Of a DNA stretch of 64,000 bases, positions 5,503-41,329 are shown piece by piece. Source of the stretch: a virus. Lineage: Duplodnaviria; Heunggongvirae; Uroviricota; Caudoviricetes. Location: IMG/VR virus record IMGVR_UViG_3300044716_000631; one strand, given 5' to 3'. Numbering within the stretch: position 1 is the first letter of the stretch; every line of letters begins with the position of its first letter. The position numbers and the translations under genes are program-made. The notes below the pieces were generated by a model. It saw nothing but the letters and a program-made list of their open reading frames with translations. It was not told where the DNA came from and did not search any database.

Positions 5503-5511
5503 GAGTTATCC

Positions 5512-6357: not shown

Positions 6358-6390
6358 TGTAGTTTCCTCCTAAGAACTTTCTTTTATTTA

Positions 6391-6585
6391 TTATTCTTCT
6401 GTAGTGAGCATGTCGATCATGTACTGAGACATTTTCTTATGAAATCTTTTTGGTCGACCATTGACCATCACGGTGTGTTCAGGCATAGGCTTCTCAGAAA
6501 GAATAATCTCCTTTGTAGCAGATTCTTCCTGTGCCTTTACGACATCTACACCATTAACTACTAAACCGCCTACGTTGATAGCCAT
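6391..6585 (-). CDS. hypothetical protein (64 aa)
   Basis: Short ORF. Confidence 0.3.
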   Translation of the reverse strand: MAINVGGLVVNGVDVVKAQEESATKEIILSEKPMPEHTVMVNGRPKRFHKKMSQYMIDMLTTEE

Positions 6586-6586
6586 A

Positions 6587-8035: not shown

Positions 8036-8047
8036 TTAATTAGTCCT

Positions 8048-8662
8048 TTAGTCTGCATCTATAATTTTAATTTTGCGTTCTGCCGCACGAGACCTTTTAA
8101 TAAGGTATCTTTTTAGGTTATCTATATCTTTATCACCTTGAGGTCCTGCAATCGGATCAGGAGCATTTCCCTTTGGTGGGTTATAAAATCTTTTATCATC
8201 AGCCGGATGGTAATCAGCGTTTGGATCAATTTCATTATCATGTTCACCGGATTGAGTATGAAGTGAATCCATTGCAGCTTTTACAATAGCTTCATGTTCT
8301 TTTTCAAGCTTCATTCCAACGGCATGTCTCATTACAATATCACCATGCATCGTAGCACGAGCAATATGAGCTAAAGTAGCTTTACCAGTATGATGAACAT
8401 CCTTGACAATATCAAATAATTTATCTAAATTCTCAGCCGCTGTCTGAGCATCAGAAGCATTCGTATCTTTTGGAAGATCCGCATAAAGCTTCTGTGCTTC
8501 AGGTGAAACCTCAAACGCCTTGGTGGTATATGAACCAACTGAAATCTGATCGTTCTGATCAGACTCAACAGCTCCCAAAGCAATATGATTACCTTCGTAT
8601 ATATCTCGAATTTTAGATTCTAAAGATCTATAACTCATTTCGTTGAAGCCCTTAGCATCCAA
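8048..8662 (-). CDS. hypothetical protein (204 aa)
   Basis: ORF. Confidence 0.45.
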   Translation of the reverse strand: MDAKGFNEMSYRSLESKIRDIYEGNHIALGAVESDQNDQISVGSYTTKAFEVSPEAQKLYADLPKDTNASDAQTAAENLDKLFDIVKDVHHTGKATLAHIARATMHGDIVMRHAVGMKLEKEHEAIVKAAMDSLHTQSGEHDNEIDPNADYHPADDKRFYNPPKGNAPDPIAGPQGDKDIDNLKRYLIKRSRAAERKIKIIDAD

Positions 8663-10958: not shown

Positions 10959-12302
10959 TTATCGTGAAATTTCTTCCCAGTCTACTGATGCATATATGTC
11001 TGCACCACCGGAGTTTGATGCAGCCACTAGCGATAGTTCAAAAGGCGCTCCGGTTAAACCATTTCTTTCTAATTGAAACTTGAAGAGAGCTTCTTTTAGA
11101 ATATCAACAGATGTTGATCCCTGGTTAGAGCCCGATGTATATCCAGATGCTAAAATTCTACCGCCATCATAAGTGCCACCATCAATCTTGTATTCAACCG
11201 CACTGTTTGTGCCAGCATCAACCCATGTTCCACCATTTGATGTGCCACTTGCTCTTACTTGCCAGTTATAATGAGCATTGTTTGTAATACCAAGAACTGA
11301 AAGAGCCGTGAGAATTACAATAGCATCTAATCGATTCGGAGATGCTTTTAACCGAATCGAAAGAACAGTGTAATAGGTACCAGCTACTGGTAGATCTACA
11401 GGTGCAGTAATAGGAACAGACGCGGCCTGTTGTAATCCACGTAGTTCATATCCACCTTCTGAAACAACAGATGAACACACCTGGCCCATCGTTGATGAAC
11501 TAGCAGTAGTTCCTGTATTCTTCATTTCATAGCGAAGTGGCAATGATGCAGTTGTAATATATGTTGATGCAATTTTATTAGCATGGTGGAACGAATGGCA
11601 ATGAACTAACTTACCATCAATAACAAACCCGCAACGAACTGTACCAAGACCAAGCCATTCAATATCCATCCAGAAGATTTGTGCTTTCGTCAGATCAAGT
11701 TCGATATTTGATGGGCATGGACCAAGACCCTGTCCCGGTACGTTAACAGACGAACCTTGAAGTGTATCGTTATTCCAATTGGCCTGTTCGACACGAGTTT
11801 CTACTAATTCACCAGTAACATACGAACGCTCTACAAGATATGCTGTAGTACCGTCAATCTCGAAATATATTCCGTTCTCTGCACCGAAGTAACCTACACG
11901 TTGACGTAGATTTGCTTTTGGTGTAGCAGGAACAAATGTATTGAGAACAAACAGCGATTTACCGGGTTGATAAGAACATGTTTTAGTAGTTTCTCGAATA
12001 ATCTCTGCATTTGCAGTAGTAGGCAATGTAAGATTTATGAGACCTTGATTAGTACTATGAGCAACTGTCGTGCCCGCGGTGTTTGATGTAGACCAAAGTC
12101 CGTTATCTCGGTAACGATGAGAAGAATCAAAAAGAGTCAATGGTGTTGATGTACGCATACGACCAAACGCGTCAACTGCTACACCCGAAGGATTTGCTGG
12201 ACCTACCAGATTGCCATAAGGATCCGCTAACATAACAGCTTCAAAGAGAGTTACGTTATGTGGTTGTTTCCATTCGTGTGAGTCGATACGCCATTGAGCC
12301 AT
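10959..12302 (-). CDS. hypothetical protein (447 aa), possibly structural
   Basis: Long ORF, Gly/Thr/Ser-rich; no recognisable T4 capsid motif. Confidence 0.45.
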   Translation of the reverse strand: MAQWRIDSHEWKQPHNVTLFEAVMLADPYGNLVGPANPSGVAVDAFGRMRTSTPLTLFDSSHRYRDNGLWSTSNTAGTTVAHSTNQGLINLTLPTTANAEIIRETTKTCSYQPGKSLFVLNTFVPATPKANLRQRVGYFGAENGIYFEIDGTTAYLVERSYVTGELVETRVEQANWNNDTLQGSSVNVPGQGLGPCPSNIELDLTKAQIFWMDIEWLGLGTVRCGFVIDGKLVHCHSFHHANKIASTYITTASLPLRYEMKNTGTTASSSTMGQVCSSVVSEGGYELRGLQQAASVPITAPVDLPVAGTYYTVLSIRLKASPNRLDAIVILTALSVLGITNNAHYNWQVRASGTSNGGTWVDAGTNSAVEYKIDGGTYDGGRILASGYTSGSNQGSTSVDILKEALFKFQLERNGLTGAPFELSLVAASNSGGADIYASVDWEEISR

Positions 12303-12913
12303 TAATTAATCCAGTTCTTAAATCTTGCAATGAATGACTCGTGGATACCCATACCCTTACGAACATCATGATACAATTCATCTTTATGCGCTTTGCTCAT
12401 GCCAGATGGAGCCATCTTGTGGAATGATTCTTTATCACCAGCAGTGGCATGTTTACGCATTGCAGTACCAGAAGCAGATTCGATTCCACCGCCACCTTCT
12501 TTGCGTTCACCGCCTACAGACTTGACTTTAATGCTCTTGAAATTGTAGTGTCCATGTCTCCCTTCAGTTCCATTGTACTTGTGTAACAAGTTATGAAACT
12601 CGTGGACACGATCTGAGCCAACATGCATAGTTACGTGTGAGTAACCAGCTTTGTGTAGCTTAGACATCTGATGAAGAAGTGTAGGATGGTCCTTTGTCAT
12701 AGCCTCGACATGAGAACCTTTGACAGCACGAGAAAGATGCTTTACCTTTTGCTCAGGAGTCAGCGGATTCTTCTTGGCATCATGAGATCCCGTAGTTAGA
12801 ATCTTATGATCCGCACCTTCCTTTTGAGCAGCACCCATTACATGTCTAACGACCATCTCGTGGCCAGCATGCACTGGATTGAATCTTCCTTGAGTGATAT
12901 GAATCGACTTCAT
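12302..12913 (-). CDS. class I nucleotidyltransferase (HxGH; NMN adenylyltransferase-like)
   Basis: GRFNPVHAGH HIGH-type motif near N-terminus and SASGTAMRKH (ISSTxxR-like) motif. Confidence 0.5.
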   Translation of the reverse strand: MKSIHITQGRFNPVHAGHEMVVRHVMGAAQKEGADHKILTTGSHDAKKNPLTPEQKVKHLSRAVKGSHVEAMTKDHPTLLHQMSKLHKAGYSHVTMHVGSDRVHEFHNLLHKYNGTEGRHGHYNFKSIKVKSVGGERKEGGGGIESASGTAMRKHATAGDKESFHKMAPSGMSKAHKDELYHDVRKGMGIHESFIARFKNWIN

Positions 12914-14079
12914 AGTGCTTTGTCCCTATTAAAGTTAGCAGCCGAGAACTCAGCACGATCTACGATCTTAGTAGGACGATTATGTCTTACTACAACAAAT
13001 CCTTCAGGCTTAGATTTCTTACCATTAATACTATGGTCGAACTCAGCGTGGCTCGAGAGTGTGTTAGCCAATACATCCTTGGCTTTTTGCAAATGGCTAT
13101 GCATCTGAAGAACACGCTCAAAATGACCACGATTACGTTGAATGTGAGCTACATCACTTTCCATAGCAGCCGTTTTCATAGCTTTAGCTTTATCTGTCTT
13201 AACAGAATCAACTTTTTTCTGATGAGACTTAGCAAGGTGAGCCATAAACTCGTTTACGTTTGGCTTGGTACCAGTACGAACTGTATGGTTGATATACGTC
13301 TTCAAAGGAATACGGTGGCTCTCAATAGCAGCATGAGTTTCTGGACCAGTCTTAGCATGAAGCTTAGCAGCGGCTGCCATATGCTTTACAAACCTAGTTT
13401 GATGCTGAGGCTTGTAATCAATACCAGACATGTCATGCTCAGTTGAAATCAGGTGAACGTCTTTATGAAGACCAAACTCATCAAGATTCGGAGCATACTC
13501 AGCTTTCATATCCTCGAGGTTCTTACCATTGTACTTGGTATGAACAGCCACGCCAATTTTAGATCTCGAAGCAGCTTTGCCATGAGGTGAATTCTTGTCA
13601 GCAGAATATGTAATGGTATTCGGAGTAAAGTGAATCTTGTTGCCAGACTCGTGCACATCATTTGGTGTATGCATGATATCACCTTGGAACACACCCTTCT
13701 TTGGAGTTACCTTTGGCAGGTGATCGAGAGCTGCTTTGAGCTTTTCAACAAGACCAGGCGCGTGACCATGATTACGCTGAATATCTTCATGCGTATAGTT
13801 GATCTTTGGATTCTTATTGAATGCAGACTTGGAAGCCACAAAGAACTTACCAGTTTCTGGATGGCGACCAAACACAACAGAAGGTGAACCATCATACTTC
13901 ATGGTTACCTTAGTGGCATTATCTTTACCAGTTAGTCTGTCATGCACATCTTTGAGATTGTGATAGGCATGCGAGAAACCCTCGCCACCAGCATTAATCA
14001 CATGATCTTCTGCGTGTTCGAGGTGCTTCAGCTTTTCTTCGCTGGCTTCTTCTGTAAGGAAATTTTTAAATGCTGTCAT
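12910..14079 (-). CDS. putative ATP-dependent polynucleotide (RNA) ligase-like protein
   Basis: KYDGS matches covalent nucleotidyltransferase motif I (KxDG), resembling T4 Rnl1 KEDGS; rest not recognisable. Confidence 0.35.
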   Translation of the reverse strand: MTAFKNFLTEEASEEKLKHLEHAEDHVINAGGEGFSHAYHNLKDVHDRLTGKDNATKVTMKYDGSPSVVFGRHPETGKFFVASKSAFNKNPKINYTHEDIQRNHGHAPGLVEKLKAALDHLPKVTPKKGVFQGDIMHTPNDVHESGNKIHFTPNTITYSADKNSPHGKAASRSKIGVAVHTKYNGKNLEDMKAEYAPNLDEFGLHKDVHLISTEHDMSGIDYKPQHQTRFVKHMAAAAKLHAKTGPETHAAIESHRIPLKTYINHTVRTGTKPNVNEFMAHLAKSHQKKVDSVKTDKAKAMKTAAMESDVAHIQRNRGHFERVLQMHSHLQKAKDVLANTLSSHAEFDHSINGKKSKPEGFVVVRHNRPTKIVDRAEFSAANFNRDKAL

Positions 14080-14681
14080 TTGATTGTCTTTATCGATCCA
14101 TCTGGTTTCACGAAATAAGCTTCGAATTTAACATTAGGGTATTCCTTTTGGAGTTCCAGGAATGCCTTCAGGTTACTCATCGCATCGTCGTATAAACGAG
14201 TTTTAGTGTAGTTTTGAGTATTTAGGTATTTGCGAAACACAACTTTCTTTGCTTCAGCAGGTGAATCCATTCCTAGATTACCTGAACGCTCAACGTGCAT
14301 TGAGTCGATTGGAAGACCATGATCGCGGAAAGTCTGAAGGAACATTTCCTTATCGTCAAAGTCAGCTCGAGCCGTTACAATAATTGCTCGGCTATGAACG
14401 TTCTTTTTGGCTTTGACAATGGCCTTGGCCTTGTTAATCATCCGAACGATCGGTGTAGAGGTCTTACGAAACACCTCAGCAGATGCAAACTCTCTGAAGT
14501 CGTATTCTTCACCGGCCTTACGTTTGTAGGTATTGAATTCCTGGTTGTCCAACATCCGAACAACTTTGCCATCCTTTACTACAGCAACTTTGGCTTTGGT
14601 ATGAAAGAGCGTCTCATCGATATCAAAGATCGTGAGAGTTCCGGAACCAATGAAGTTTTTAAATCTGTTTATCTTTTTCAT
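14076..14681 (-). CDS. HAD-family phosphatase (polynucleotide 3'-phosphatase-like)
   Basis: DIDETLF matches HAD motif I (DxDxT) as in T4 Pnk phosphatase domain. Confidence 0.5.
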   Translation of the reverse strand: MKKINRFKNFIGSGTLTIFDIDETLFHTKAKVAVVKDGKVVRMLDNQEFNTYKRKAGEEYDFREFASAEVFRKTSTPIVRMINKAKAIVKAKKNVHSRAIIVTARADFDDKEMFLQTFRDHGLPIDSMHVERSGNLGMDSPAEAKKVVFRKYLNTQNYTKTRLYDDAMSNLKAFLELQKEYPNVKFEAYFVKPDGSIKTIK

Positions 14682-14691
14682 ATTATCTTTA

Positions 14692-14716
14692 TATCTTGTT
14701 TTGAAAAAAATGTCAA
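14692..14716 (-). promoter_or_regulatory. sigma70-type early promoter (TTGACA-N17-TATAAA)
   Basis: Minus strand TTGACA at 14711-14716, 17-nt spacer, TATAAA; upstream of ORF 14076-14681. Confidence 0.45.
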
Positions 14717-14722
14717 CTTATT

Positions 14723-15457
14723 TTAGCGTAAAAATGGATTTTTTTTCGCAGTTCCTGGCTTGACCGAATATTTGCTATCAGGCATTTTGGTGATCTTAAT
14801 CTCAGCCTGAACTTCATAAAATTGCGAGCGAGTCGATACACGAACTTTAAAGTCACCTTCTCCAGATAAAACTGGAATGGCGGTGTTAAGCCCAAGCGGA
14901 TTACCTTTACCAATCATGTAAAAGTCGTCTCCAGCTTGCATGTAGTATGCTGGTTCTCTTTTGCCTTCTAAATAGTGGCGAGTTACAAGTGCACCTAGAT
15001 TCATACCAGGTTCATTAGCAATATAACGATTAATGTTTGACTGAGAGAAATAAGATTTCATAACGTGTAATGGAACGGCACCAGGTTCATTTAACCCACC
15101 TTTGCTGGTAGGAATCTTAATCACTTTCTCAGGAATACCAGAGTATTTAGAAATGTCTTTAATGAACTGCTTTGCTTTAGCTGATGAGTTCAAAATCTTA
15201 ACTGCTTCGGCAGCAGCTGGAGTTTTATATGTTGTTTGCCACTTACCATCACTATAAAATACACGAGGATTAGATAGATTGTCGGTGTGCGACATCTTGA
15301 CTTCTACCCAAACTTTATCAATACGTCTATTATTATAGGAAGTGATTTTAACATCAGATAAGTCAGTAGCACCAGGAGGACGCGTAGCTGTAACACCAGG
15401 AATACTATTGATATTGTCGGCTACGTCTTTTTCGTACTTGTCAGATGCTGCACTCAT
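14723..15457 (-). CDS. hypothetical protein (244 aa)
   Basis: ORF. Confidence 0.45.
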   Translation of the reverse strand: MSAASDKYEKDVADNINSIPGVTATRPPGATDLSDVKITSYNNRRIDKVWVEVKMSHTDNLSNPRVFYSDGKWQTTYKTPAAAEAVKILNSSAKAKQFIKDISKYSGIPEKVIKIPTSKGGLNEPGAVPLHVMKSYFSQSNINRYIANEPGMNLGALVTRHYLEGKREPAYYMQAGDDFYMIGKGNPLGLNTAIPVLSGEGDFKVRVSTRSQFYEVQAEIKITKMPDSKYSVKPGTAKKNPFLR

Positions 15458-15482
15458 AAAAACTCCTCAGTCTATTTATCAT

Positions 15483-15527
15483 ATAAAAAAAGGCCAGCCC
15501 TTGTGCAACGCAACAGAGGGGCTGGCC
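15483..15527 (-). terminator. rho-independent terminator
   Basis: GGCCAGCCC...GGGCTGGCC hairpin followed by T-run on minus strand, downstream of ORF 15549-16103. Confidence 0.55.
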
Positions 15528-15548
15528 ATATTAATCTTATTTATACTA

Positions 15549-16103
15549 TTAAGCGGCAATAAACCATTCTGGAGTTGGCCGCTTGGTCCATGCCATCTTG
15601 AATCGATCCTGTTTGGTCTGATAGAACTTACGATAAGATCCTACGATGTCATTGTAGTTAATACACTCAGGATTAGCCTTCATGGCTAGTGGTTGAGGAG
15701 TCTTGTAACCAACAGGAATGTTACGAGGCAATTGCTTGAGTACCTCACGTAGCAACGTATCAGTGGCATGAACCTTACCATAACGATACGTGTACTCATC
15801 ACAGAGAGCTACAAAATGGACATAATGCCAGTTGTAGTTGTTATTGCTCTCGGCCGTCCAGATGGTACAAGGGTGATGCATATGAACTGCACGATAGAGA
15901 ACATCCTCACGACTGTCAGGAAGAGTCCATGCCTTTGACATAGTCTTGCCAGACTTTGATGGCACACGAGTCTGTACGCCGTCAAGCATACGATGAACTG
16001 TCGAAAGCATTTGAGCTGACTCGACAATCATCTTGACAACGTGCTTATCGCACTGCAATTGAGCGGCTACAACTGGATCACTATCAAGAACAAATAAATT
16101 CAT
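15549..16103 (-). CDS. hypothetical protein (184 aa)
   Basis: ORF. Confidence 0.45.
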   Translation of the reverse strand: MNLFVLDSDPVVAAQLQCDKHVVKMIVESAQMLSTVHRMLDGVQTRVPSKSGKTMSKAWTLPDSREDVLYRAVHMHHPCTIWTAESNNNYNWHYVHFVALCDEYTYRYGKVHATDTLLREVLKQLPRNIPVGYKTPQPLAMKANPECINYNDIVGSYRKFYQTKQDRFKMAWTKRPTPEWFIAA

Positions 16104-16146
16104 AATAATACCTTAATACATCAAACACGAAATATTGTACACCGTT

Positions 16147-16413
16147 TTATATCTGAATTCCTGTGGTCTGCTTAATATACTGATTTGCTACCATCTGGCC
16201 AGTTTTCACGGCACCAACAATAGTCGTATCAGAGATCAATACGTTACTATCAGGTGCAGACACCAACCATGGCATCATACCGAATCCACCATTACCAGTC
16301 ATGGCAATTGACCGTGGCTTAATAAGCTCAGTCACTCCACCTTCTTGCTTCACTCGTGCAATGATTTCCTCACCCGAGATAAGCTTAATCGTATAAACTT
16401 CATTCTGTTCCAT
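16147..16413 (-). CDS. hypothetical protein (88 aa)
   Basis: ORF. Confidence 0.4.
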   Translation of the reverse strand: MEQNEVYTIKLISGEEIIARVKQEGGVTELIKPRSIAMTGNGGFGMMPWLVSAPDSNVLISDTTIVGAVKTGQMVANQYIKQTTGIQI

Positions 16414-16672
16414 TATCTTCTACCTTATGCACGTATTTAAATTTCTGTTCTTCTGGCCAAGCTTTAAGATAGTCATTGTCCTCGTCAAACAAGCGAAGAT
16501 ACTCTGCATCATCGATAACACGAGTAGAAGTGATTGTCTCGTCAAGATGTAACTGACTAAACTCTTCAGCCTCTTTGAAAATCACAGTATCTTTGGCATC
16601 ATCTGCGCTTTCACATTCAATGACATATCGCATGCGAAACATGTCGATTGTCTCTACAAGATACTTAGGCAC
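16400..16672 (-). CDS. hypothetical acidic protein (90 aa)
   Basis: ORF. Confidence 0.4.
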   Translation of the reverse strand: MPKYLVETIDMFRMRYVIECESADDAKDTVIFKEAEEFSQLHLDETITSTRVIDDAEYLRLFDEDNDYLKAWPEEQKFKYVHKVEDNGTE

Positions 16673-16886
16673 CTTTTACCTCGCGAAAAGTTGTTTTACC
16701 ATATTGAGTTGCATAATACCATTGGCCACCACAGACAGTGCACCAAATATCACCAGTAGTAGTATTACCATCTGGGTTGGTATTATTGCCGTGCTTGTCA
16801 TAGACTGGCGGATAGTATGCACATGTAGTCATACCAGCGCCGACACGAAACCTGCATTCATCTGCACAATTAGGATTCGGATTCAA
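16665..16886 (-). CDS. small Cys-rich protein
   Basis: CADEC...CAYYP...CTVCGG cysteine pattern. Confidence 0.35.
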   Translation of the reverse strand: MNPNPNCADECRFRVGAGMTTCAYYPPVYDKHGNNTNPDGNTTTGDIWCTVCGGQWYYATQYGKTTFREVKGA

Positions 16887-16898
16887 GGTCTATTCCTT

Positions 16899-17138
16899 TT
16901 ACTTGTCTAACTCATCAAACTCAACGCTGCCAGGAACAGTGTACCAGCTGATAACACGCTCAAACGATTTAATCATCTTGCGAATCTGCTTGCGATCCTC
17001 TTTAGGATCTAGTGAAAACACCTTTGCATTACCGCGCTCATAGTCTTTCAACAAAGCTGAACGCGACTCAAAGAGTTGCTCAACAATAATGTTATCAATA
17101 GTTTCCCAATCAAGTTCTACAGTAATCTTACTCATCAA
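16899..17138 (-). CDS. hypothetical protein (79 aa)
   Basis: ORF. Confidence 0.35.
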   Translation of the reverse strand: MMSKITVELDWETIDNIIVEQLFESRSALLKDYERGNAKVFSLDPKEDRKQIRKMIKSFERVISWYTVPGSVEFDELDK

Positions 17139-17535
17139 TATTCACCTTTCTATAACGATTAACAGTTCCATCAGCTTCTTCAACCATGATCTCATCAAGG
17201 TTCTTGTTCTCAGCAAAGATACGTGGTTCGTGATCAGCAACAACACGGTGTGCTTCACGTAGTTTACGCATTACAGCGTTAGCAATACCAAACTTATTAC
17301 GATTGGTATTCATTGCTTCCTCAACTGCTTCGGCACAAGCTCTATACAGTTCGTCAGGAAGTTCCCATGAGTGATCTACATACGAACCTGGAGTCAAGCC
17401 ACCAACACGGCGAAGATACTCTTGCCCACCATCAACAGAGATGGCACCACATGTACAAGTCACAAAATCATGACGATGTTTAGAGACAATGAAGTCTCCG
17501 CATCCATTACAACTTGCTGCGTTTTGAATAATCAT
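17128..17535 (-). CDS. zinc-finger-like Cys-rich protein
   Basis: CNGCGDF...HRHDFVTCTCG. Confidence 0.4.
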   Translation of the reverse strand: MIIQNAASCNGCGDFIVSKHRHDFVTCTCGAISVDGGQEYLRRVGGLTPGSYVDHSWELPDELYRACAEAVEEAMNTNRNKFGIANAVMRKLREAHRVVADHEPRIFAENKNLDEIMVEEADGTVNRYRKVNIDE

Positions 17536-17768
17536 GCTACTAACCTTTCGTGCACCTGGCGAATGTGCTTACACTTGCCATGGAAATTAAAACCCGTGCA
17601 ATTGCAAACCCAGCCACGCTCTGTCATTGTAGTATGGTAGGTCTTACCTTGCGAATTAGTGTATGGCCAAGAGAACCCAACAAGATGATGGTCATCAAAA
17701 TTGATGCCGGTCATTTTCAATGGTACCTTGAACGGGCTTACGCCATAAAGATTTAATGTTTCAATCAT
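17532..17768 (-). CDS. SWIM zinc-finger protein
   Basis: CNCTGFNFHGKCKH matches CxCxnCxH SWIM signature. Confidence 0.45.
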   Translation of the reverse strand: MIETLNLYGVSPFKVPLKMTGINFDDHHLVGFSWPYTNSQGKTYHTTMTERGWVCNCTGFNFHGKCKHIRQVHERLVA

Positions 17769-17769
17769 A

Positions 17770-17802
17770 ATTTAGTCTACCACCATTTGATAAAAATGTC
17801 AA
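17770..17802 (-). promoter_or_regulatory. sigma70-type early promoter (TTGACA-N17-TAGACT)
   Basis: aaaaatgtcaac motif; reverse complement gives TTGACA, 17 nt, TAGACT. Confidence 0.45.
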
Positions 17803-17944
17803 CTGAAAAATAGAGAAATTAAACAAAAAAATATGAATCCATATAAAACAAAGCTAAAAGCAACCTTGGCGACCTTGAGCCCTACCCAAAAGAAGAGACC
17901 CAAGATCGCCAAGAACGGCAACAGCAAGAACAGGAGTATGAAAC

Positions 17945-18397
17945 TCAACTGCGCCTCTTACCTGTTGCCGGGTCGGCCGCGTCAGACTTGGAAAGGACAA
18001 CAAGTCCGCCTTTGTTATAGGCTTGGCCGACGATAAACTTACTACTTACCTCGAGCTTTTCACGCTCGAAAGCTGAGTTCTTTCCGTAGTGTACACCAAT
18101 CTCGTTTTGAGAAGGATACTTTTTGCGGTGATCTGATACGTTGTAATCAGGCATCGGAGTACCGCGAAGTTTAGGCTTGTAGTTGCCTGCACGGTACTGT
18201 TTGTATTCTTCGAACGTTTTTGGCTTGACGCCGATACGCTTACAAAACTTACAGTCTTCGAGCCAAGCCAAACCAATCTTGGTATGCTTGGACGCAGACA
18301 TTTTAGACTTACGCTTACCAGTATGAGTGGTAGTGTAAGCAGGACCTAGAAGATGCATTGTCATAAGTAACCTCCAGATTTTGTTATACACTACCAC
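17945..18397 (-). CDS. hypothetical basic protein (150 aa)
   Basis: ORF with GGAGG RBS and upstream early promoter. Confidence 0.45.
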   Translation of the reverse strand: MVVYNKIWRLLMTMHLLGPAYTTTHTGKRKSKMSASKHTKIGLAWLEDCKFCKRIGVKPKTFEEYKQYRAGNYKPKLRGTPMPDYNVSDHRKKYPSQNEIGVHYGKNSAFEREKLEVSSKFIVGQAYNKGGLVVLSKSDAADPATGKRRS

Positions 18398-18411
18398 TCA
18401 ATTAATGTCAA
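18383..18411 (-). promoter_or_regulatory. sigma70-type early promoter (TTGACA-N17-TATAAC)
   Basis: TTGTTGACAT extended -35, 17-nt spacer, TATAAC, then GGAGG and ATG of ORF 17945-18397. Confidence 0.5.
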
Positions 18412-18414
18412 CAA

Positions 18415-19221
18415 TTATCTTACGTTGACAATACCCTTGAAGTCATAAGGTACCACAACCGTATTCACCTTGCCGTTTTTCACGCCTTCAGCGATGTCTT
18501 GTAGAGCCATAGCAGCCATGTACTCGGTAGCACCCTTGTTGGCGTTCAGAGCGGCAATACGCTCAGCTTCCAACTTAGCAGTACGAACCTCTACCAGCTT
18601 TTGCTTCTCAGCGTTCTGTGCCTGAACCAGTTGGTTAGCCGATGCTACGATGTTGGCAGCAGGCTTGATCTGACGTACAAGAACCTGCGAGACTACAATC
18701 GAACCGTCGAGCTTCTCTGAAGCAAGTTGCGCAACGATCTCTTGACGAACAAGCTGCTCGATCTCTGCACGGTTATCAGCCATCTTCAAGGACTCATACT
18801 TACGAGCAACCTTGTAGGCAGCATTACGACCGAGCTGACGAATGTAATTGTACATCAGCAGCGTGTCACCTTCTTCGGTCTCAGCATGGAAGCCACGGTT
18901 CTTCTCAATGTAAAGTTCTGCAACAGAACCAGGATTAATCGAGTAGATCACAGCCATATCAAAGTCTGCGACTGTTGAGTTATCCGAAGCCAACGGAGTC
19001 AGATCAACGACATCAACAGAGACGTCCTTGGTAGGAAACGTCATAACATCGCCAAACAGTGTCTGATTTACAGAACCGGGCATTAGCTCAGTGGTTTCAA
19101 TAGTCTTGTCGATTGCACGACGAACACCAACTTCACCAGTTTCGATTCGAGTACATGCAGCAGTCGTAGCCATCAGACCAGCGAGCACAGCAACCTTAGC
19201 ATAACGATTCATAATATTCAT
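18415..19221 (-). CDS. SPFH/band-7 (stomatin/HflK-like) lipoprotein
   Basis: Lipoprotein signal (LAGLMATTAAC), SPFH-like core, long Ala/Glu-rich coiled coil. Confidence 0.45.
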   Translation of the reverse strand: MNIMNRYAKVAVLAGLMATTAACTRIETGEVGVRRAIDKTIETTELMPGSVNQTLFGDVMTFPTKDVSVDVVDLTPLASDNSTVADFDMAVIYSINPGSVAELYIEKNRGFHAETEEGDTLLMYNYIRQLGRNAAYKVARKYESLKMADNRAEIEQLVRQEIVAQLASEKLDGSIVVSQVLVRQIKPAANIVASANQLVQAQNAEKQKLVEVRTAKLEAERIAALNANKGATEYMAAMALQDIAEGVKNGKVNTVVVPYDFKGIVNVR

Positions 19222-19230
19222 TCCTTTTAA

Positions 19231-19407
19231 TTAAAACAAAAATACGATAGACATAGCAACAGCAGTAGTGGCTGTTGCAATTGCCAACGAGTAACCAGCT
19301 AACGCAACAAATTGCATTCGTTCTTTTCCGGTTAGCCGGCGGAAAATATCGATGCCTGTATATAAAATTACAAACAACGCAATAAAAGCAACAATCATTT
19401 TACTCAT
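19231..19407 (-). CDS. small membrane protein (58 aa; not in ORF track)
   Basis: ATG at 19407 behind AAGGAG RBS; MSKMIVAFIALFVILYTG... two TM helices; adjacent to SPFH protein. Confidence 0.35.
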   Translation of the reverse strand: MSKMIVAFIALFVILYTGIDIFRRLTGKERMQFVALAGYSLAIATATTAVAMSIVFLF

Positions 19408-19416
19408 AACAACTCC

Positions 19417-20052
19417 TTAACCTGGACCACTTCCATTACCCCATGCTTTTGCGGGACCTTCATATTCCGCATCCTTCCAACGCTGTTGGATTCTTTGTTC
19501 AACCTCGTCAAAGTGAAGAGGAGTGAAATCGGTCTGTTCAACACAGACACAAAGATAGCGAGGATCTGGCTTATAGACAATATCCTCATCAATGACTTGC
19601 CAACTCATAACCTGATTTGCATGAAGGTGTCCGTGTACGTTGACACGGAACCGTTCTGTCACGCAATCAGGATGCAAAGGGATATGGCTCAGGATGAACT
19701 TATCCACGAACACACGAACACCATGAATCTGCTGGAAACCAACCTCACGATACTCATCGTCCTTGAAGATATCATGGTTGCCACGAATAAGGATCTTACG
19801 ACCGTTCATCCGCTTTACCAGCTCGAGATACTTCTTGTTGATGACAACATCGCCGAGGAAGTAGACAGTGTCCTGCTCCTTGACCTTCGCGTTGTGGCGC
19901 TCGATCATAGTCTCGTTCATTTCCTCGTTAGAGGAGAACGGACGGAGAGGACTGCCATCCTCTAACTTGAACTTTTCCCACGAGTTCGTATGACCAAGGT
20001 GATGGTCAGAGATCACGAACCTGTTTACAAACCTAGTCATTACTTTTAACAA
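19417..20052 (-). CDS. calcineurin-like metallophosphoesterase
   Basis: DHHLGH, GDVV, GNHD, GHLH metal-binding motifs. Confidence 0.65.
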   Translation of the reverse strand: MLKVMTRFVNRFVISDHHLGHTNSWEKFKLEDGSPLRPFSSNEEMNETMIERHNAKVKEQDTVYFLGDVVINKKYLELVKRMNGRKILIRGNHDIFKDDEYREVGFQQIHGVRVFVDKFILSHIPLHPDCVTERFRVNVHGHLHANQVMSWQVIDEDIVYKPDPRYLCVCVEQTDFTPLHFDEVEQRIQQRWKDAEYEGPAKAWGNGSGPG

Positions 20053-20227
20053 CCTTTACTTTATTCCTAAGGACAATAATACTGCGCGCATTACAACCAT
20101 TGTTACGGATAATTGCTTCAGCCTCTTCACGAGTTGGTGCATCTACAAGGACGGTGTCCCTATCCGTTTGACTGTACTCAATATGAACAATCCAATATGT
20201 CTTTGCGTCAGTCATAACAATCTCCAT
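20033..20227 (-). CDS. hypothetical protein (64 aa)
   Basis: Short ORF between phosphoesterase and kinase. Confidence 0.3.
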   Translation of the reverse strand: MEIVMTDAKTYWIVHIEYSQTDRDTVLVDAPTREEAEAIIRNNGCNARSIIVLRNKVKVVKSND

Positions 20228-20278
20228 TCGGTATATTTTTAGTATATACCAAATATCATATTATGTACACAGTTATTT

Positions 20279-20761
20279 TCACACAAATGTGATTTTATCG
20301 AAACCTTCTGACATGAGAGGAATCTCATAACTATCGATCATCCTATCAAGAGCTTCCTGAGGAATAGTCTTACCTCGACGCGAGTTCAGGCGGCGCTTCC
20401 ACTCTTCCTTAGAAAGAGCTTCCGACCCAACCTCAGGAAACACTACGCACTCAATCTCATACTTGTGCAGTTTCAGTTTCTGAATGAACTTAGCACGAGA
20501 CTTTGCAGTCAGGTTAGTGCGGTCGATAATAAAATCGGCCCCACGCATCAGACATGTAGTAATTTGCCTCCACATTATCTGTTCGGCAAACTGAATCAGT
20601 CCCTTGAATCCTTCATCATATGTCATACCGTAACTGCTAGCTATTTCTTGGATTATGTTATCGGTTGACGCCACAGCCGGCGGGTATTCTCCGTACTTTT
20701 TGTACTGCCAAGTAGACTTACCAGATGCAGGAACACCAACTAACATTATACACTTAGGCAT
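20279..20761 (-). CDS. P-loop kinase (polynucleotide 5'-kinase-like)
   Basis: Walker A GVPASGKST at N-terminus as in T4 Pnk kinase domain; ~160 aa. Confidence 0.5.
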   Translation of the reverse strand: MPKCIMLVGVPASGKSTWQYKKYGEYPPAVASTDNIIQEIASSYGMTYDEGFKGLIQFAEQIMWRQITTCLMRGADFIIDRTNLTAKSRAKFIQKLKLHKYEIECVVFPEVGSEALSKEEWKRRLNSRRGKTIPQEALDRMIDSYEIPLMSEGFDKITFV

Positions 20762-21965
20762 TGTAAGTCACTCCTTTAAACCAAGCATCACGAATTGCTT
20801 CGTACTTCACCGTCTTGGTCAGGTTTTTACGAATCGTATCACGAACATCAGTCCAATACTTTTCGACGCTACGTTCTTCAAAGTTCTTGAAGATCAATGT
20901 AGGTATATACGGGTCACGATATGTTTTAGCGTGTTCAAGAGCAAATGTCTTACGATCAATGTTTTCTTCACGTATCCAATCAAGATCATTAGCCAGCATA
21001 TAGACTACATCAGTAACCGCAAGATTGAAGTAAGCTTCAAACCGAGTTAGACGATCACGATCTTCCTGAGGCAAGTGAGCCTTCACGTCATCGAGGTTAT
21101 TGTCAAGAATCAACTCAACAATGTTACGATCTTGAAGGATCTTTTCCTTTGCCTTGTGGATCTGAACATACCAATCGCACTTCAGCTTCAGCATATGCCC
21201 ATCATCGAAACAAACAACAAAGCCTTCGAGATCTTCTAGAAGACGAACGTATTCAATGAAAGACTTCATATCGGACTGAGGTTCAAATGCACGAACCGTT
21301 GGAATGAAATACAGATCGGCTGTGTTGGTTACAAGGTCCAAAGACATATAACGACCGGTAGTCAGATCACGTATAGCAGTCAGGATTAACTGATCTTCCT
21401 TGTAGTCAAGGACTATACGCTGCTTACGCGAGCACCACTCGAAGATAGGAGTATACCCACGTCTGATTATGAAACGTGCAAACTGACTATAATTTTCGTT
21501 AAGCAGGACGAAGTCCTCGACAGGCTCTGCCACCTCAGTAGCACCCATCTTCGTACCCCAGATTAGTTGATCGTCCACAACAAATGGAGCGATCATTGAA
21601 CCATCAAGTTTCTCAAGGATAGCATGAGACTGCGACAGATCGACTACATGGTCCTGAGTCTCTTCACGCTCGTTGACGTTGAAGAACTTGTGGAACGGAC
21701 GACGAATGATCTCGCCAGTCGCAGTATCAAAGATGATACCACGGCACTCACGGCGAAGTCGAGCGTGAAGGTTTTCGATCTCATAATGATCGTGGTTTGC
21801 ACGAAGATCAGAAGAATCTAGAACATCAGGAAACGTATCAGCCATCATCACATTGTAGTTGATGACAGTGTAACCTTCCTTGACAGCCACAACGAATTCG
21901 TCGCGACCTTCGATTGCAGGCAGCACATCAGAGATGTTTCGGATAGTAGGAAATTCGTAGTTCAT
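20754..21965 (-). CDS. rnlA: RNA ligase 1 (T4 RnlA-like)
   Basis: Motif I LEKLDGS (T4 KEDGS); ECRGIIFD...RRPFHKFFNVNE matches T4 ECRGIMFE...SRPMEKFFNLNE; KLKCDWYVQIH matches T4 KIKSDWYVSLH. Confidence 0.8.
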   Translation of the reverse strand: MNYEFPTIRNISDVLPAIEGRDEFVVAVKEGYTVINYNVMMADTFPDVLDSSDLRANHDHYEIENLHARLRRECRGIIFDTATGEIIRRPFHKFFNVNEREETQDHVVDLSQSHAILEKLDGSMIAPFVVDDQLIWGTKMGATEVAEPVEDFVLLNENYSQFARFIIRRGYTPIFEWCSRKQRIVLDYKEDQLILTAIRDLTTGRYMSLDLVTNTADLYFIPTVRAFEPQSDMKSFIEYVRLLEDLEGFVVCFDDGHMLKLKCDWYVQIHKAKEKILQDRNIVELILDNNLDDVKAHLPQEDRDRLTRFEAYFNLAVTDVVYMLANDLDWIREENIDRKTFALEHAKTYRDPYIPTLIFKNFEERSVEKYWTDVRDTIRKNLTKTVKYEAIRDAWFKGVTYNA

Positions 21966-22068
21966 GATAACCTCAAAAAGATCAGACGGCGACGGACCAG
22001 GACACCTAGCAATTCAGCAATATACGAAATCCCACTCGGGATCCATCGCCATCTGATAGTTTAGTCTA

Positions 22069-22097
22069 TACTATATTTGGAAAAATGTCAACAATTA
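22069..22097 (-). promoter_or_regulatory. sigma70-type early promoter (TTGACA-N17-TAGACT) upstream of rnlA
   Basis: Minus strand TTGTTGACAT, 17-nt spacer, TAGACT. Confidence 0.45.
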
Positions 22098-23178: not shown

Positions 23179-23399
23179 TTAGTCTTCCTCCATTGAAATC
23201 CAAAACAAAGTTCTTGCATTTTACGATGAAACCAGTTAGGCACCTGTCCTTTGTTGGGGTTATAAACGATAGCACCAGGCTGGCCACTGCCATAATCCCC
23301 CATCAACCATACTGCCCATTCAGACTTTTCTGGCAGTTTGATAACCAGGTTGTCGGGCATTTCCATTGCATACCAGCTGCCATCATCTTCGGCCACCAT
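23172..23399 (-). CDS. hypothetical protein (75 aa)
   Basis: ORF directly after helicase gene. Confidence 0.35.
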   Translation of the reverse strand: MVAEDDGSWYAMEMPDNLVIKLPEKSEWAVWLMGDYGSGQPGAIVYNPNKGQVPNWFHRKMQELCFGFQWRKTNG

Positions 23400-24814
23400 T
23401 ACTTAAATCCTTGAAATTTGTTTTTGTTGAACTTATTAACTGGCTTTGATTCTTCATTGAGTCTACTACCAGAACTCGACTTATCAAATACAGGAACATC
23501 GTCGTCCTGCATGAGATCTTCTTGAGCAGAGGCTTCTACATTATAGAGTCTCATCTTTGAATAGTCAACACCAATCACGAATCGTTTATGAACAGCAGGA
23601 TCGCCATAACGATTCTTGAGCTGCTTGACCATGATTTGATCGAGTTGACGAAGTTCTTCACTGGTCACAAGAGCAAACATAAAGTCAGCCGTTGCTGGTA
23701 GACCAAACGATTCAGAAGTATCTTCCAATCCAACATCAGAGTTACTATAGCCAGAACGAGTTGTCTGAGTAGCCGAGACAATTGGAACATTGAACTCAAC
23801 AGCCAGACCACGAAGCTCTTCAGCAATTGCTTTGATGTAGGTGTAGGAGTTTACATTCGATCCTGCCTTGATACGAGAAGAAGCACAGATGTTCAGATAA
23901 TCGATATAGATAATATCTGGAACAAAGTCTTTCTTCAAGTTCAGTTCATTCAATAGATGCCTGAAGTTAGCCGAACCAGCAGTTGCAGTTGGATACTCCT
24001 TCACAATCAACTTGCCCTTGGCACGATCACGAACACGACCAATCAACTTATAGTAGATTGCTTGTGGAAGCTCCTTCAATTCGTCGAGCGTTACACCGAG
24101 TAGATTTGCATCCACGCGTTCAGCAATTCTTTCTTCAGCCATTTCCATGGTGATATAAAGAACGTTCTGACCAGACAAAAGATTTTGAGCTGCGCCGTGA
24201 CACATGAATAGAGACTTACCAACGCCAGTACCAGCAAGAGCAATATTCAGAGTCTTACGCGGTAGGCCACCCTGAGTAATCTTGTTAAAGAAGTCAAGAT
24301 CAAAAGGAATACGAACTTCCTTGCGATGATAGAACTCATAACGAGCATCAGCATCATCAAGGAAGTCGTGGCCAATCGAGTTGTCGAATGAAACACCGAG
24401 AGCGTCCTGCAAGATCTTAGGGATAGCACCAACACTGATGCTATCCTTCTTATTATCATCTACAATCTGAATCGATTGCATCAGAGCATTATATAGAGCT
24501 TTGTCTTTACAGAACTTCTCGGTGGAGTCAACAAGCCAATTCATATCCTTCTCTTCAGACTTGTCAAGAGTTGACACGAGATCTTTGGCTCGCTTGAACT
24601 GTTCTTCAGTCAAGCCAGTTTTCTCGTTCAAATCAATGTCAAGCGCAGTCTTAGTCGGAAACGAGTTGTACTTGTTCACATAGTCAGTGATTAGGTCGAA
24701 CACTGTACGATCAACCTGGTCACTGAAATAGTCTGACTGTAAGAATGGAATTACCTTGCGTGCATACTCCTCATTGTTAATCAAATTGCCGAAGATAACA
24801 TTCTCAATTTTCAT
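23399..24814 (-). CDS. 41: replicative DNA helicase (T4 gp41, DnaB-like)
   Basis: Walker A LAGTGVGKSLF, DnaB-like C-terminal RecA fold, 471 aa, adjacent to uvsX. Confidence 0.85.
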   Translation of the reverse strand: MKIENVIFGNLINNEEYARKVIPFLQSDYFSDQVDRTVFDLITDYVNKYNSFPTKTALDIDLNEKTGLTEEQFKRAKDLVSTLDKSEEKDMNWLVDSTEKFCKDKALYNALMQSIQIVDDNKKDSISVGAIPKILQDALGVSFDNSIGHDFLDDADARYEFYHRKEVRIPFDLDFFNKITQGGLPRKTLNIALAGTGVGKSLFMCHGAAQNLLSGQNVLYITMEMAEERIAERVDANLLGVTLDELKELPQAIYYKLIGRVRDRAKGKLIVKEYPTATAGSANFRHLLNELNLKKDFVPDIIYIDYLNICASSRIKAGSNVNSYTYIKAIAEELRGLAVEFNVPIVSATQTTRSGYSNSDVGLEDTSESFGLPATADFMFALVTSEELRQLDQIMVKQLKNRYGDPAVHKRFVIGVDYSKMRLYNVEASAQEDLMQDDDVPVFDKSSSGSRLNEESKPVNKFNKNKFQGFK

Positions 24815-25881
24815 TCGCCTTCCAGCTCCTCATAAACGGATTCAACTTCATCTTCCTGCATGATACTACCGGAAGCTACACGATACCTATTCTCAATGAA
24901 TTCATTGAACTTCGGGCATTGTAGAATTGGATGCCAGAAGCTAAAGCTATAAGTATCATTCATACGATAAGACTTATCAAGGATCTCACCGGTTTCCATG
25001 TCAACACGCTGGAACCAACCAACCTTTGGCTTGATTACGTGGCCAGACTCGAGAGCCATGTCCATCAAACCAGACCACTTGGAAATACCTTCATCCCAAG
25101 AAACTTCGATTGGAATCTTGCTCTTTTCTTTGACAAAGCGAGACTTCTCGACGTTGATGATGAAGTTATAACCTACAACATCCTTGCCTTCCTTCTCTTG
25201 CTGACGACCAAGAATGAAGATGTTATCGGCCGAGTAATAGATACCAGTACCACCAGATACAACTGGCTTCGAGAACATTTCCTGAGTCATGTAAGTATGG
25301 TTTACCACAACCATCGGAATATCCTTGATGGTCAAGTGAGGAGTTACCATACGGAACAGAGACTTGAGCTGCTTTGCACGAGTCATGTCAGCTGCTGAGT
25401 TTTGCTTCAGAGCATCATCAACTTCTTTCTTTGAAGCCAAGTTACCAACCGAGTCGATGATAATCATAACATGTTCACCACGGCCAATCTGTTCAAGTTG
25501 GCTCATGATGTCGAACTTCAATTGCTCGATATCAGTGATGGGAGTATGAAGCACTCGGCTTGTGTCAATCTTGAACGAATCAAAGTAGGACTGAGGAGTA
25601 CCAAACTCGGAGTCATAAAACATTAGCACGGCGTCAGAATACTTATCCATGTAAGCCTTGGCCATCAACAGACTGAAAGAAGTCTTAAAGTGCTTTGATG
25701 GGCCAGCCCAAATGGTAAGACCTGGAGCAAATCCACCATTGATCTTGCCGGACAACGCGATGTTGATTGCAGGAACCGTGGTGGAGATTGTGTCCTTCTC
25801 ATTGAAGAACTTTGAGTCTGCAAGAATATCAGTATCTTTGATTGTAGAATTCTTACGCAGTTTATTAAGTAAATCAGACAT
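24811..25881 (-). CDS. uvsX: recombinase UvsX (RecA-like)
   Basis: RecA-fold Walker A GPSKHFKTSFSLLM, 356 aa, T4 UvsX-like. Confidence 0.85.
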   Translation of the reverse strand: MSDLLNKLRKNSTIKDTDILADSKFFNEKDTISTTVPAINIALSGKINGGFAPGLTIWAGPSKHFKTSFSLLMAKAYMDKYSDAVLMFYDSEFGTPQSYFDSFKIDTSRVLHTPITDIEQLKFDIMSQLEQIGRGEHVMIIIDSVGNLASKKEVDDALKQNSAADMTRAKQLKSLFRMVTPHLTIKDIPMVVVNHTYMTQEMFSKPVVSGGTGIYYSADNIFILGRQQEKEGKDVVGYNFIINVEKSRFVKEKSKIPIEVSWDEGISKWSGLMDMALESGHVIKPKVGWFQRVDMETGEILDKSYRMNDTYSFSFWHPILQCPKFNEFIENRYRVASGSIMQEDEVESVYEELEGE

Positions 25882-26177: not shown

Positions 26178-26379
26178 TGATAACTCCTATTGTCCAGTTT
26201 TCAGCGCAATCTTCAGCGTATCGTAATGTTTTGTCTTTCAAAACTCTTGTCTCAGTGTGCTGATCATTTTCAAAAAACTTGACATAAAAATAATCATCAT
26301 AGATTTGCTTATGCACCTCGGCTCTGCGATTTGCATATTGTCCATTACCATTGTATTCTGTTACCATCATGAGAACCAA
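26170..26379 (-). CDS. hypothetical protein (69 aa)
   Basis: ORF. Confidence 0.35.
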   Translation of the reverse strand: MVLMMVTEYNGNGQYANRRAEVHKQIYDDYFYVKFFENDQHTETRVLKDKTLRYAEDCAENWTIGVING

Positions 26380-40520: not shown

Positions 40521-40804
40521 GAATAAAGGCGAAGTGGGTGGATTCGGATATACCACCAGTGCCCAGTCAATTTCCTATGAAATCTCAGCACACGACCCGT
40601 TTGCCGGTTGAGCGGGAGACCAATCCCCGAGTCTACTTTATCTCCACTGACAAGGAGATTATTCAGTCACACTTCTTACAGAGTCCGTCGACCCTGATAT
40701 CTATTTGCTCTGTGGGATCCACCCCCACGTACCAGCCCTCAATGGCCGGATCTTAGTTTAATTGCACGGACTACCGTGTCCCAGATCAAGAGCAAAACTT
40801 AAAT

Positions 40805-41324: not shown

Positions 41325-41329
41325 ATAAA

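Follow-up and report, generated by a model that had tools for sequence, protein, structure and literature searches.

Two candidate ligase-centred cassettes for polynucleotide ends in an uncultured T4-like phage

The 64,000-nucleotide stretch of DNA that concerns us here (IMG/VR virus record IMGVR_UViG_3300044716_000631, referred to throughout as the window) is part of the genome of an uncultured T4-like myovirus and carries two groups of genes, all on the minus strand, which a first-pass annotation of the letters had read as two separate sets for healing and sealing RNA ends. We think it probable, at roughly 60%, that these are two independent ligase-centred cassettes that process polynucleotide ends, the first (set A) being a heal-and-seal set for tRNA and the second (set B) a further, wider cassette built around a protein of the DUF6267 family. 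The six open reading frames (ORFs) and all of the motifs quoted for them were found where the annotation had put them (Table 1), and since each of the two neighbourhoods is kept in distantly related phages, neither grouping is random. Homology and conserved synteny give good support to the reading of set A as a set for healing and sealing RNA ends. For set B it stands in part, with a predicted ligase-fold core and repair-like partners, and what fell away was the specific likeness of its phosphatase to T4 Pnk, with RNA only slightly favoured as the substrate of the cassette.

Set A as a predicted tRNA-repair pathway

The ligase of set A passes the Pfam family RNA_lig_T4_1 (PF09511) at E 1.4e-33 (117 bits; cut-off 28.3), and it is matched by the T4 Rnl1 structure in the Protein Data Bank (PDB entry 2c5u) with E 2e-32 in a phmmer search. 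In that alignment motif I of the window ligase (KLDG) lies opposite the KEDG of T4, which holds K99, motif IV (EGFVV) opposite EGYVA, and motif V (KLKCDWY) opposite KIKSDWY, and with all three motifs in register the early call of a clear T4 RnlA homologue is upheld. The NCBIfam equivalog TIGR02308 gives 167.7 bits, under its cut-off of 242, and the C-terminal tRNA-specificity domain T4_Rnl1_C is matched weakly, at 20.6 bits against a cut-off of 27.

The neighbouring gene, which shares an 8-nucleotide (nt) overlap with the ligase gene, encodes a predicted Pnk-like 5'-OH polynucleotide kinase. This is the P-loop protein that had been noted for its GVPASGKST motif, and it scores 69.8 bits with AAA_33 (E 4e-19; cut-off 27) and aligns end to end with the kinase domain of T4 Pnk, at 28% identity to residues 1-142, where its K15-S16, D34 and R129-G130 stand opposite K15-S16, the catalytic D35 and the lid residues R126-G127 of the T4 enzyme; R38 of T4 Pnk, which contacts the acceptor phosphate, is not kept and is replaced by Ile37. 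Because of this alignment, and because a T4 Pnk query matches this ORF and no other within the window, we regard the protein as Pnk-like; the alternative that the annotation itself had raised, a deoxynucleoside monophosphate kinase, is ruled out by the same alignment and by the co-conservation of the kinase with Rnl1. Its further matches are weak ones, to the NCBIfam models for Pnkp, PNK-3'Pase and PSTK (22.7 bits with TIGR04075 bacter_Pnkp, whose cut-off is 750, and 27.5 bits with TIGR01663, whose cut-off is 503) and to the PDB entries for Pnkp1 (4xrp) and T4 Pnk (1ly1), at E 0.06-0.3.

The third enzyme is, as was first proposed, a calcineurin-like metallophosphoesterase. It passes Metallophos (PF00149) with 26.3 bits, the cut-off being 21.5, it matches phrog_547 at E 1.6e-49, and a reading of its sequence finds all five metal-binding motifs (D16-H-H18, G67-D68, G91-N-H-D94, H123 and G141-H-L-H144). 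Its true start is probably the ATG at 20040, since the orthologue at L010, a locus from a relative, has 207 amino acids (aa).

The order Rnl1-kinase-phosphoesterase is kept at seven loci of the window's clade, namely L010 and six of ten IMG/VR loci (L014, L015, L016, L018, L019 and L022), counted among loci that extend far enough, and the same order recurs in the cultured freshwater Synechococcus phage BUCT-ZZ01, with proteins that are 34, 28 and 42% identical to those of the window. Between the kinase and phosphoesterase genes of the window sits a 64-aa ORF that is a variable insert, present in L018 and absent from L010, whose three enzyme genes are contiguous. In Caulobacter phage Cr30 and Ruegeria phage V10, too, a kinase homologue lies directly downstream of Rnl1.

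Judged by these homologies, set A is most likely a split-gene form of heal-and-seal repair of broken tRNA. A host anticodon nuclease or similar RNase would leave a 2',3'-cyclic phosphate and a 5'-OH; the phosphoesterase, going by its homology and synteny, may open the cyclic phosphate and remove the 3' phosphate; the kinase, by virtue of its likeness to the T4 Pnk kinase domain, would phosphorylate the 5'-OH; and Rnl1, if its T4 motifs are a guide, would seal the break via a lysyl-AMP on the lysine of KLDG and an AppRNA intermediate. The logic would be that of T4 Pnk (PseT) and Rnl1 (gp63), in which a 5'-OH and a 2',3'-cyclic phosphate are healed and then sealed. Ligase family, catalytic motifs and kinase domain are common to both, and set A, too, is carried by a T4-like phage that has tRNA genes. 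The differences are ones of arrangement: the stand-alone set A kinase is without the HAD phosphatase domain of T4 Pnk, its 3' healing being assigned to a separate calcineurin-type enzyme, and whereas other genes separate pseT from rnlA in T4, over a distance of ~1.4 kb, the ligase and kinase genes of set A are contiguous and overlapping. With the bacterial Pnkp/Hen1 systems (Clostridium thermocellum Pnkp; the Capnocytophaga Pnkp1-Rnl-Hen1) set A has three chemistries and their superfamilies in common, but it spreads over three polypeptides what bacterial Pnkp holds in one, and its ligase is of Rnl1 type where the bacterial ligase domain is of Rnl4 type; a scan of the ORFs in 12302-21965, the small ones between the sets excepted, turned up no Hen1-type methyltransferase. 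As the split-gene version of a pathway that is already known, set A is thus an ordinary one. In large phages, RNA repair brings together RNA ligases, polynucleotide kinases and HAD or occasional calcineurin-like phosphatases, it also uses ligase-associated Pol-beta nucleotidyltransferases, and several non-redundant ligases are often found in one phage (Iyer et al. 2021, PMC7824862). To this set A would add a further example of large phages repairing nuclease-cut tRNA, of use mainly for annotation.

It could also be, although we think it unlikely, that the phosphoesterase is not an RNA 3'-healer at all, but a protein phosphatase, a cyclic-nucleotide phosphodiesterase or a DNA-end nuclease, and that set A is just a kinase-ligase pair. 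Two observations do weigh against the reading that we prefer: the phosphoesterase family occurs in 1734 phage records, many of them from hosts whose phages give no Rnl1 matches, and in Cr30 the homologue lies ~130 kb from the Rnl1-kinase pair. The nearest NCBIfam model, ligase-associated PdeM (E 5e-10, under its cut-off), is a DNA-damage-response endonuclease, and the nearest solved structure, Aquifex aq_1665 (PDB 1xm7, E 9e-7), is of a protein whose function is not known. Against this alternative counts the fact that the healing domain of bacterial Pnkp is itself a calcineurin-type phosphoesterase, as work from the Shuman laboratory established. In addition, the phosphoesterase gene adjoins Rnl1 and the kinase in two lineages that are only 28-42% identical, a close homologue in CcrColossus (53% identical) lies ~0.7 kb from a 'tRNA splicing ligase', that is, beside an RNA ligase of another superfamily, and calcineurin-like phosphatases are on record in some phage RNA-repair sets (PMC7824862). 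That the phosphoesterase is a constant companion of Rnl1 was considered separately, and is ruled out by the far wider spread of its family and by the distance in Cr30. Downstream of the phosphoesterase come a hydrophobic ORF and an SPFH/Band-7 gene, the latter missing from the corresponding position in L010. SPFH modules have been proposed as scaffolds for RNA repair.

DUF6267 and its partners in set B

Comparative genomics provides the strongest evidence on set B. The phage records that contain DUF6267 number 471 and are nearly all those of cyanomyoviruses; the Pelagibacter phage HTVC008M, OM43 phages and a few others carry it as well. In S-PM2 it is fused to the (T/H)xGH nucleotidyltransferase in one 591-aa protein, and such fusions of ~590 aa, to which the Joint Genome Institute (JGI) gives the name of nicotinamide mononucleotide (NMN) or nicotinic acid mononucleotide (NaMN) adenylyltransferase, are abundant in cyanophages. 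An IMG/VR sample yielded 73 loci with a full DUF6267 ORF, 52 of which had enough downstream DNA to be informative, and at 50 of these 52 the nucleotidyltransferase accompanies DUF6267, either fused to it (9 loci) or as a separate gene no more than 3.5 kb away (41 loci). A HAD gene adjoins DUF6267, upstream or downstream, at 12 of the 73 loci, with DUF6267 identity down to 41%, and a Zeta/AAA_33 P-loop kinase is present in some arrangement at 13, being a separate gene directly downstream at five (as it also is in HTVC008M) and fused C-terminally to the nucleotidyltransferase at about eight. At two loci (L086 and L101) a Pol-beta nucleotidyltransferase that passes the Pfam threshold is fused to the nucleotidyltransferase protein. 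Frequently the partner is a large multidomain nucleotidyltransferase with a C-terminal DUF5824 (L002, which is HTVC008M 5212-8173, L003, L086 and L101); in some loci the Pol-beta nucleotidyltransferase forms its N-terminus, and a 170-aa ORF stands between DUF6267 and the kinase.

DUF6267 and the nucleotidyltransferase of the window have as direct homologues the cyanomyovirus core genes T4-GC 71 and T4-GC 190 (S-PM2p138/139; S-SZBM1_140/141), which have the same gene order and the same place downstream of gp41, but whereas cyanophages usually make one protein of the two, the window has two overlapping genes that are preceded by a HAD gene. In the literature the nucleotidyltransferase has been handled as a TagD-like auxiliary metabolic gene of unclear function, with its ligase-like partner unmentioned (PMC9146016; PMC12801897), and on DUF6267 (PF19782) itself we found no paper, and no assigned function in the sources searched.

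We predict that DUF6267 is a ligase-fold enzyme, that is, a covalent nucleotidyltransferase. An AlphaFold2 model built on an alignment of 25 sequences, which comprise the window's clade and cyanophage homologues at 33-35% identity, is a confident one (predicted local distance difference test score, pLDDT, 88; predicted template-modelling score, pTM, 0.85) and appears to match the nucleotidyltransferase domains of RNA and DNA ligases: in Foldseek searches its best PDB matches are archaeal ATP-dependent DNA ligases, with probability 0.92 and an E of only ~1e-2, and among viral models an RNA ligase is the first annotated protein past the DUF6267 family itself. Across the 25 sequences, down to 33% identity, K61-x-D63-G64, Q132-G-D134, E359-G360-F-V, K371 and R375 are invariant, and by pattern and by position in the model, although not by residue-level superposition, these would make up putative motifs I, III, IV and V, which lie on strands in the expected order. 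As a prediction, then, the second KxDG ligase-like protein of the first-pass annotation holds up, and where that annotation had allowed for motifs III-V being missing, the residues assigned to motifs I, IV and V are invariant and the putative motif III has an Asp. Sequence searches give none of this. Nothing in the PDB is significantly similar to DUF6267, no ligase family of Pfam or NCBIfam is matched, and hhalign comparison of its profile with T4 Rnl2, gp30 and the window's own Rnl1 gives no signal (probability <1%), so that a ligase could not have been assigned from sequence alone. The protein also stands well apart from Rnl5 (Naegleria NgrRnl), Rnl2 (T4) and kinetoplastid REL1, to which it is 10-13% identical with no profile-level similarity: unlike them it has a five-helix bundle of ~120 aa (residues 224-342) inserted before motif IV, it is without the N-terminal OB domain of Rnl5 and the C-terminal helical domain of Rnl2, and an obligatory (T/H)xGH partner or fusion is not known for these families.

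The HAD and DUF6267 genes overlap by 4 nt, as do the DUF6267 and nucleotidyltransferase genes. On its sequence, the HAD protein is a generic HAD phosphatase and not one that specifically resembles the phosphatase of T4 Pnk. Motifs I (DxDxT), II (T/S), III (K) and IV (DD) are all present, with D20, D22, R105, K145 and D166 invariant and T24, T103 and D165 at least 90% conserved among 39 homologues of 39-59% identity. The DxDxT motif is therefore there as annotated, but the T4 Pnk relationship that had been drawn from it did not survive: against the T4 Pnk phosphatase hhalign gives a probability of 27.7%, for an alignment confined to motifs I-II, and the HAD ORF is not hit in a tblastn search with T4 Pnk. 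Nothing significant came from the PDB with the HAD sequence, and nothing, Pnk included, with the 39-member profile. Other searches return phrog_415 (E 1e-6), the JGI name 'FMN phosphatase YigB (HAD superfamily)' and, weakly, the Pfam families DUF2608 (19 of the 39 members), Acid_phosphat_B (12) and HAD_SAK_1 (3), the last being the 'Swiss Army Knife' RNA-repair HAD family. In large metagenomic proteins the HAD domain is fused to HD, to Glyco_hydro_19 with LysM, to ParB_N or to DUF6934, and in none to DUF6267.

The nucleotidyltransferase is a borderline match to CTP_transf_like (PF01467; 21.4 bits against a cut-off of 21) and a strong one in PHROG, to phrog_3041 and phrog_395 at ~E 1e-45 ('cytidyltransferase', E 6e-45), and its sequence finds nothing significant in the PDB. 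Set beside its homologues from cyanophages, HTVC008M, S-SZBM1 and C48C1, its H15-A-G-H18 lies opposite the cyanophage TTGH and its S146-ASGTAMR153 opposite SASK(V/M)R. Of the earlier description as an HxGH, NMNAT-like enzyme, the HAGH nucleotidyltransferase holds, and the NMNAT label goes back to weak matches, the archaeal NMNAT models being hit far under their cut-offs (NF002243, 23.9 bits against 127; TIGR01527, 19.8 against 181).

The string of set B genes begins with orf244, which has no match in Pfam, PHROG, NCBIfam, the PDB or the phage collection, and which is syntenic upstream of HAD in the clade loci L010-L013, L027 and L031. By eye, orf244 has a D...E-x-K pattern (SDVK...VEVK), a hint of a PD-(D/E)xK nuclease. 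A hairpin with a T-run and, just upstream of it, a TATAAATA box at 15538-15545 both precede the string orf244-HAD-DUF6267-nucleotidyltransferase, and at its other end the nucleotidyltransferase gene shares 1 nt with the start of a virion structural gene.

What set B might do

In the reading that we favour, set B would be the older and the far more widespread of the two cassettes. DUF6267, with K61 as its nucleophile, would be obligatorily partnered with the (T/H)xGH nucleotidyltransferase, and in the window's clade a HAD phosphatase would be translationally coupled to it; the phosphatase would remove a blocking phosphate, DUF6267 would seal the nick or break, and the (T/H)xGH enzyme would supply or regenerate the nucleotide cofactor, or else nucleotidylate an end. 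The kinase and Pol-beta nucleotidyltransferase partners that are seen in other lineages tip the balance slightly towards RNA, rather than DNA, as the substrate. The company of a ligase, a kinase, a phosphatase and nucleotidyltransferases reportedly recurs among the RNA-repair systems that Burroughs and Aravind described in Nucleic Acids Research in 2016. The same make-up is a recurrent one in RNA repair (PMC7824862), which supports set B as a second end-processing and sealing set.

A number of points weigh against this. DUF6267 has an Asp in motif III (Q132-G-D134) where ligases, Rnl5, Rnl2 and REL1 among them, have a Glu, and a single lysine in motif V, where K371 is invariant, the second lysine is replaced by V373 and R375 lies nearby; its model contains no OB domain or other recognised nucleic-acid-binding domain. 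The Pfam families nearest to the HAD protein are acid-phosphatase-like and not polynucleotide phosphatases, and the alignment given to AlphaFold, a shallow one with identities of at least 84%, led to a model of it with a pLDDT of 39.7 that could not be used. The cassette sits among replication and virion genes and not beside set A or the tRNA array, and the fusion of a (T/H)xGH domain with a P-loop kinase resembles NadR, an enzyme of nicotinamide adenine dinucleotide (NAD) salvage.

The position beside replication genes, together with the lack of a gp30 homologue in cyanomyoviruses, makes the sealing of DNA nicks a serious rival, albeit one that we consider unlikely. DUF6267 would then be a DNA ligase that replaces T4 gp30 in cyanomyovirus-type phages and seals Okazaki fragments and nicks, with HAD and kinase partners cleaning DNA ends in the manner of PNKP and the (T/H)xGH enzyme supplying cofactor. 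Cyanomyoviruses have a T4 replisome without a gp30 homologue, and the review that describes it leaves room for 'distant homologues not yet identified', although it judges substitution by the host ligase to be likelier (PMC2984593). In a tblastn search T4 gp30 matches 2645 phage records, among which Synechococcus is not a top genus, and >370 Synechococcus phages carry DUF6267; the 64-kb window holds no gp30 or Rnl2 homologue; DUF6267 lies downstream of gp43, UvsX and gp41 in S-PM2, HTVC008M, S-SZBM1 and the window, with gp41 upstream at 19 of the 38 loci that have enough flank; and the best structural matches in the PDB are, as described above, DNA ligases. However, the 64 kb examined are a part of the genome, so a conventional ligase may lie elsewhere in it, the DUF6267 model is as bare of a DNA-binding domain as of an OB domain, and the Pol-beta fusion partner, which is poly(A)-polymerase-like, points to RNA 3' ends.

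A (T/H)xGH enzyme with a P-loop kinase recalls NadR, and this keeps a NAD-centred role among the alternatives, as a quite improbable one. Set B would in that case be a nucleotide or NAD-cofactor module, in which an NMNAT-like enzyme (with a NadR-like kinase elsewhere) works with a HAD nucleotidase, and in which DUF6267 transfers AMP or another nucleoside monophosphate to a non-polynucleotide target, or consumes NAD on one, or is virion-associated. NMNAT models are indeed the best NCBIfam matches of the nucleotidyltransferase, the JGI names of the cyanophage fusions agree with them, the kinase fusions resemble NadR in architecture, and the Pfam families nearest to the HAD protein are of acid phosphatase and 5'-nucleotidase types. 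Furthermore, the S-SZBM1 'cytidylyltransferase' was found in virions by mass spectrometry (PMC9146016), and the window's cassette runs directly into a virion structural gene. The NMNAT scores are nevertheless far too low, the kinase partners match Zeta_toxin and AAA_33, the latter being matched by the Pnk-like kinase of set A as well, and a NAD module leaves unexplained both the fusion of the nucleotidyltransferase to an invariant KxDG...EGFV...K ligase core and the Pol-beta nucleotidyltransferase fusions.

A more daring proposal, in which we place little confidence, is that DUF6267 and its (T/H)xGH partner form a new family of polynucleotide ligases, core to cyanomyovirus-type phages and perhaps their missing replisome ligase, with the NMNAT-like domain making or regenerating its cofactor (for example, NMN to NAD+). 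If this were true, ligation would continue when host defences or starvation deplete NAD+ or ATP. Of the two cassettes, set B could be the more important one. Genomes that carry DUF6267 and its partner number >470 among the sequenced cyanophages, pelagiphages and OM43 phages, and thousands of metagenomic proteins can be added to these; the carriers of DUF6267 are among the most abundant ocean viruses, and the nucleotidyltransferase has so far passed for an 'auxiliary metabolic gene' of cell-wall synthesis. Should DUF6267 prove to be a ligase, a core gene of cyanophages would have to be annotated anew, and ligases would gain an architecture in which a helical-bundle insert goes together with a (T/H)xGH domain, fused or coupled. 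The old problem of nick sealing in cyanomyoviruses, which lack gp30, would also become testable.

The phage and the rest of the window

The phage is a T4-like myovirus related to Kyanoviridae. Its window encodes gp44 and gp45 homologues as well as the replication genes of Table 1, and one of its virion proteins is 67% identical to that of the Synechococcus phage S-RIM8. A near-identity DNA search with positions 12000-22000 found no match in 50,697 phage records, and the nearest kin are metagenomic contigs of about 155-166 kb. The large tRNA array of the first-pass annotation is confirmed, with 25 genes called by ARAGORN, and a putative link of sets A and B and this array to counter-defence is plausible.

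Table 1. Positions of the features discussed, in window coordinates
Feature	Position	Strand	Length	Remarks
(T/H)xGH nucleotidyltransferase (set B)	12302-12913	-	203 aa	HAGH; labelled 'cytidylyltransferase' or NMNAT-like
DUF6267 protein (set B)	12910-14079	-	389 aa	KYDGSP; Pfam E 1.6e-101; predicted ligase-fold covalent nucleotidyltransferase with inserted helical bundle
HAD-superfamily phosphatase (set B)	14076-14681	-	201 aa	FDIDETL (DxDxT)
orf244	14723-15457	-	244 aa	First gene of the set B string
Hairpin and T-run	15480-15519	-		GGCCAGCCC...GGGCTGGCC TTTTTTT; direct sequence reading; parts the denV-like gene from the set B string
denV-like pyrimidine-dimer glycosylase	15549-16103	-		Pyr_excise 23.2 bits, cut-off 23; phrog_624 E 8.5e-54; just upstream of the set B string
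SPFH/Band-7 lipoprotein-like gene	18415-19221	-		Pfam E 3e-12; just downstream of the phosphoesterase region
Hydrophobic ORF	19231-19407	-	58 aa	Immediately downstream of the set A phosphoesterase
Calcineurin-type binuclear metallophosphoesterase (set A)	19417-20052	-	211 aa	Metallophos
Variable insert ORF	20033-20227	-	64 aa	Between kinase and phosphoesterase
Pnk-like P-loop kinase (set A)	20279-20761	-	160 aa	GVPASGKST; AAA_33
T4 Rnl1-family RNA ligase (set A)	20754-21965	-	403 aa	Sealing enzyme; Pfam RNA_lig_T4_1
Sigma-70-like promoter match	22063-22091	-		TTGACA-17-TAGACT; ~100 nt upstream of the Rnl1 ATG; consensus match only
gp41-type helicase	23399-24814	-		
UvsX	24811-25881	-		
Family B DNA polymerase	26367-28865	-		
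manA RNA motif (RF01745)	40527-40695	-		Rfam 58.8 bits, gathering score 55.2; adjoins the tRNA array
tRNA array	40916-45954			25 genes (ARAGORN)
Extra (26th) tRNA-like match	43766-43835	-		Rfam 35.3 bits; without an ARAGORN call
TATAAATA sites	10939, 15538, 22934, 38624, 44358, 44796, 51853	-		

An Rfam scan found no RNA element within or beside set A or set B, its matches elsewhere in the window being the tRNAs and the manA motif. The box TATAAATA is the T4 late-promoter consensus, and all seven of its sites are on the minus (coding) strand; the expectation for the two strands combined is about 2.7, and seven sites were reached in 4 of 100 shuffles. The sigma-70-like match upstream of Rnl1 agrees with the consensus at 10 of 12 positions.

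Three further observations concern other parts of the window. At 32869-37402 on the minus strand, flanked by the DNA polymerase region on one side and the tRNA array on the other, there is a four-gene cluster that is unusual in a T4-like phage, encoding a 686-aa protein with CHASE2 and adenylate/guanylate cyclase domains, a FecR-domain protein, a protein with a weak curlin repeat and CsgG (E 4.5e-48). The sole large plus-strand gene that we found (28939-30132) fuses Peptidase_M15_3 to a class I chitinase (Glyco_hydro_19), and its product is probably an endolysin. Finally, a C-5 cytosine DNA methylase (52019-53230, minus strand) lies near a thymidylate-synthase-family protein (54317-54982, minus strand), a pair that could hint at DNA base modification.

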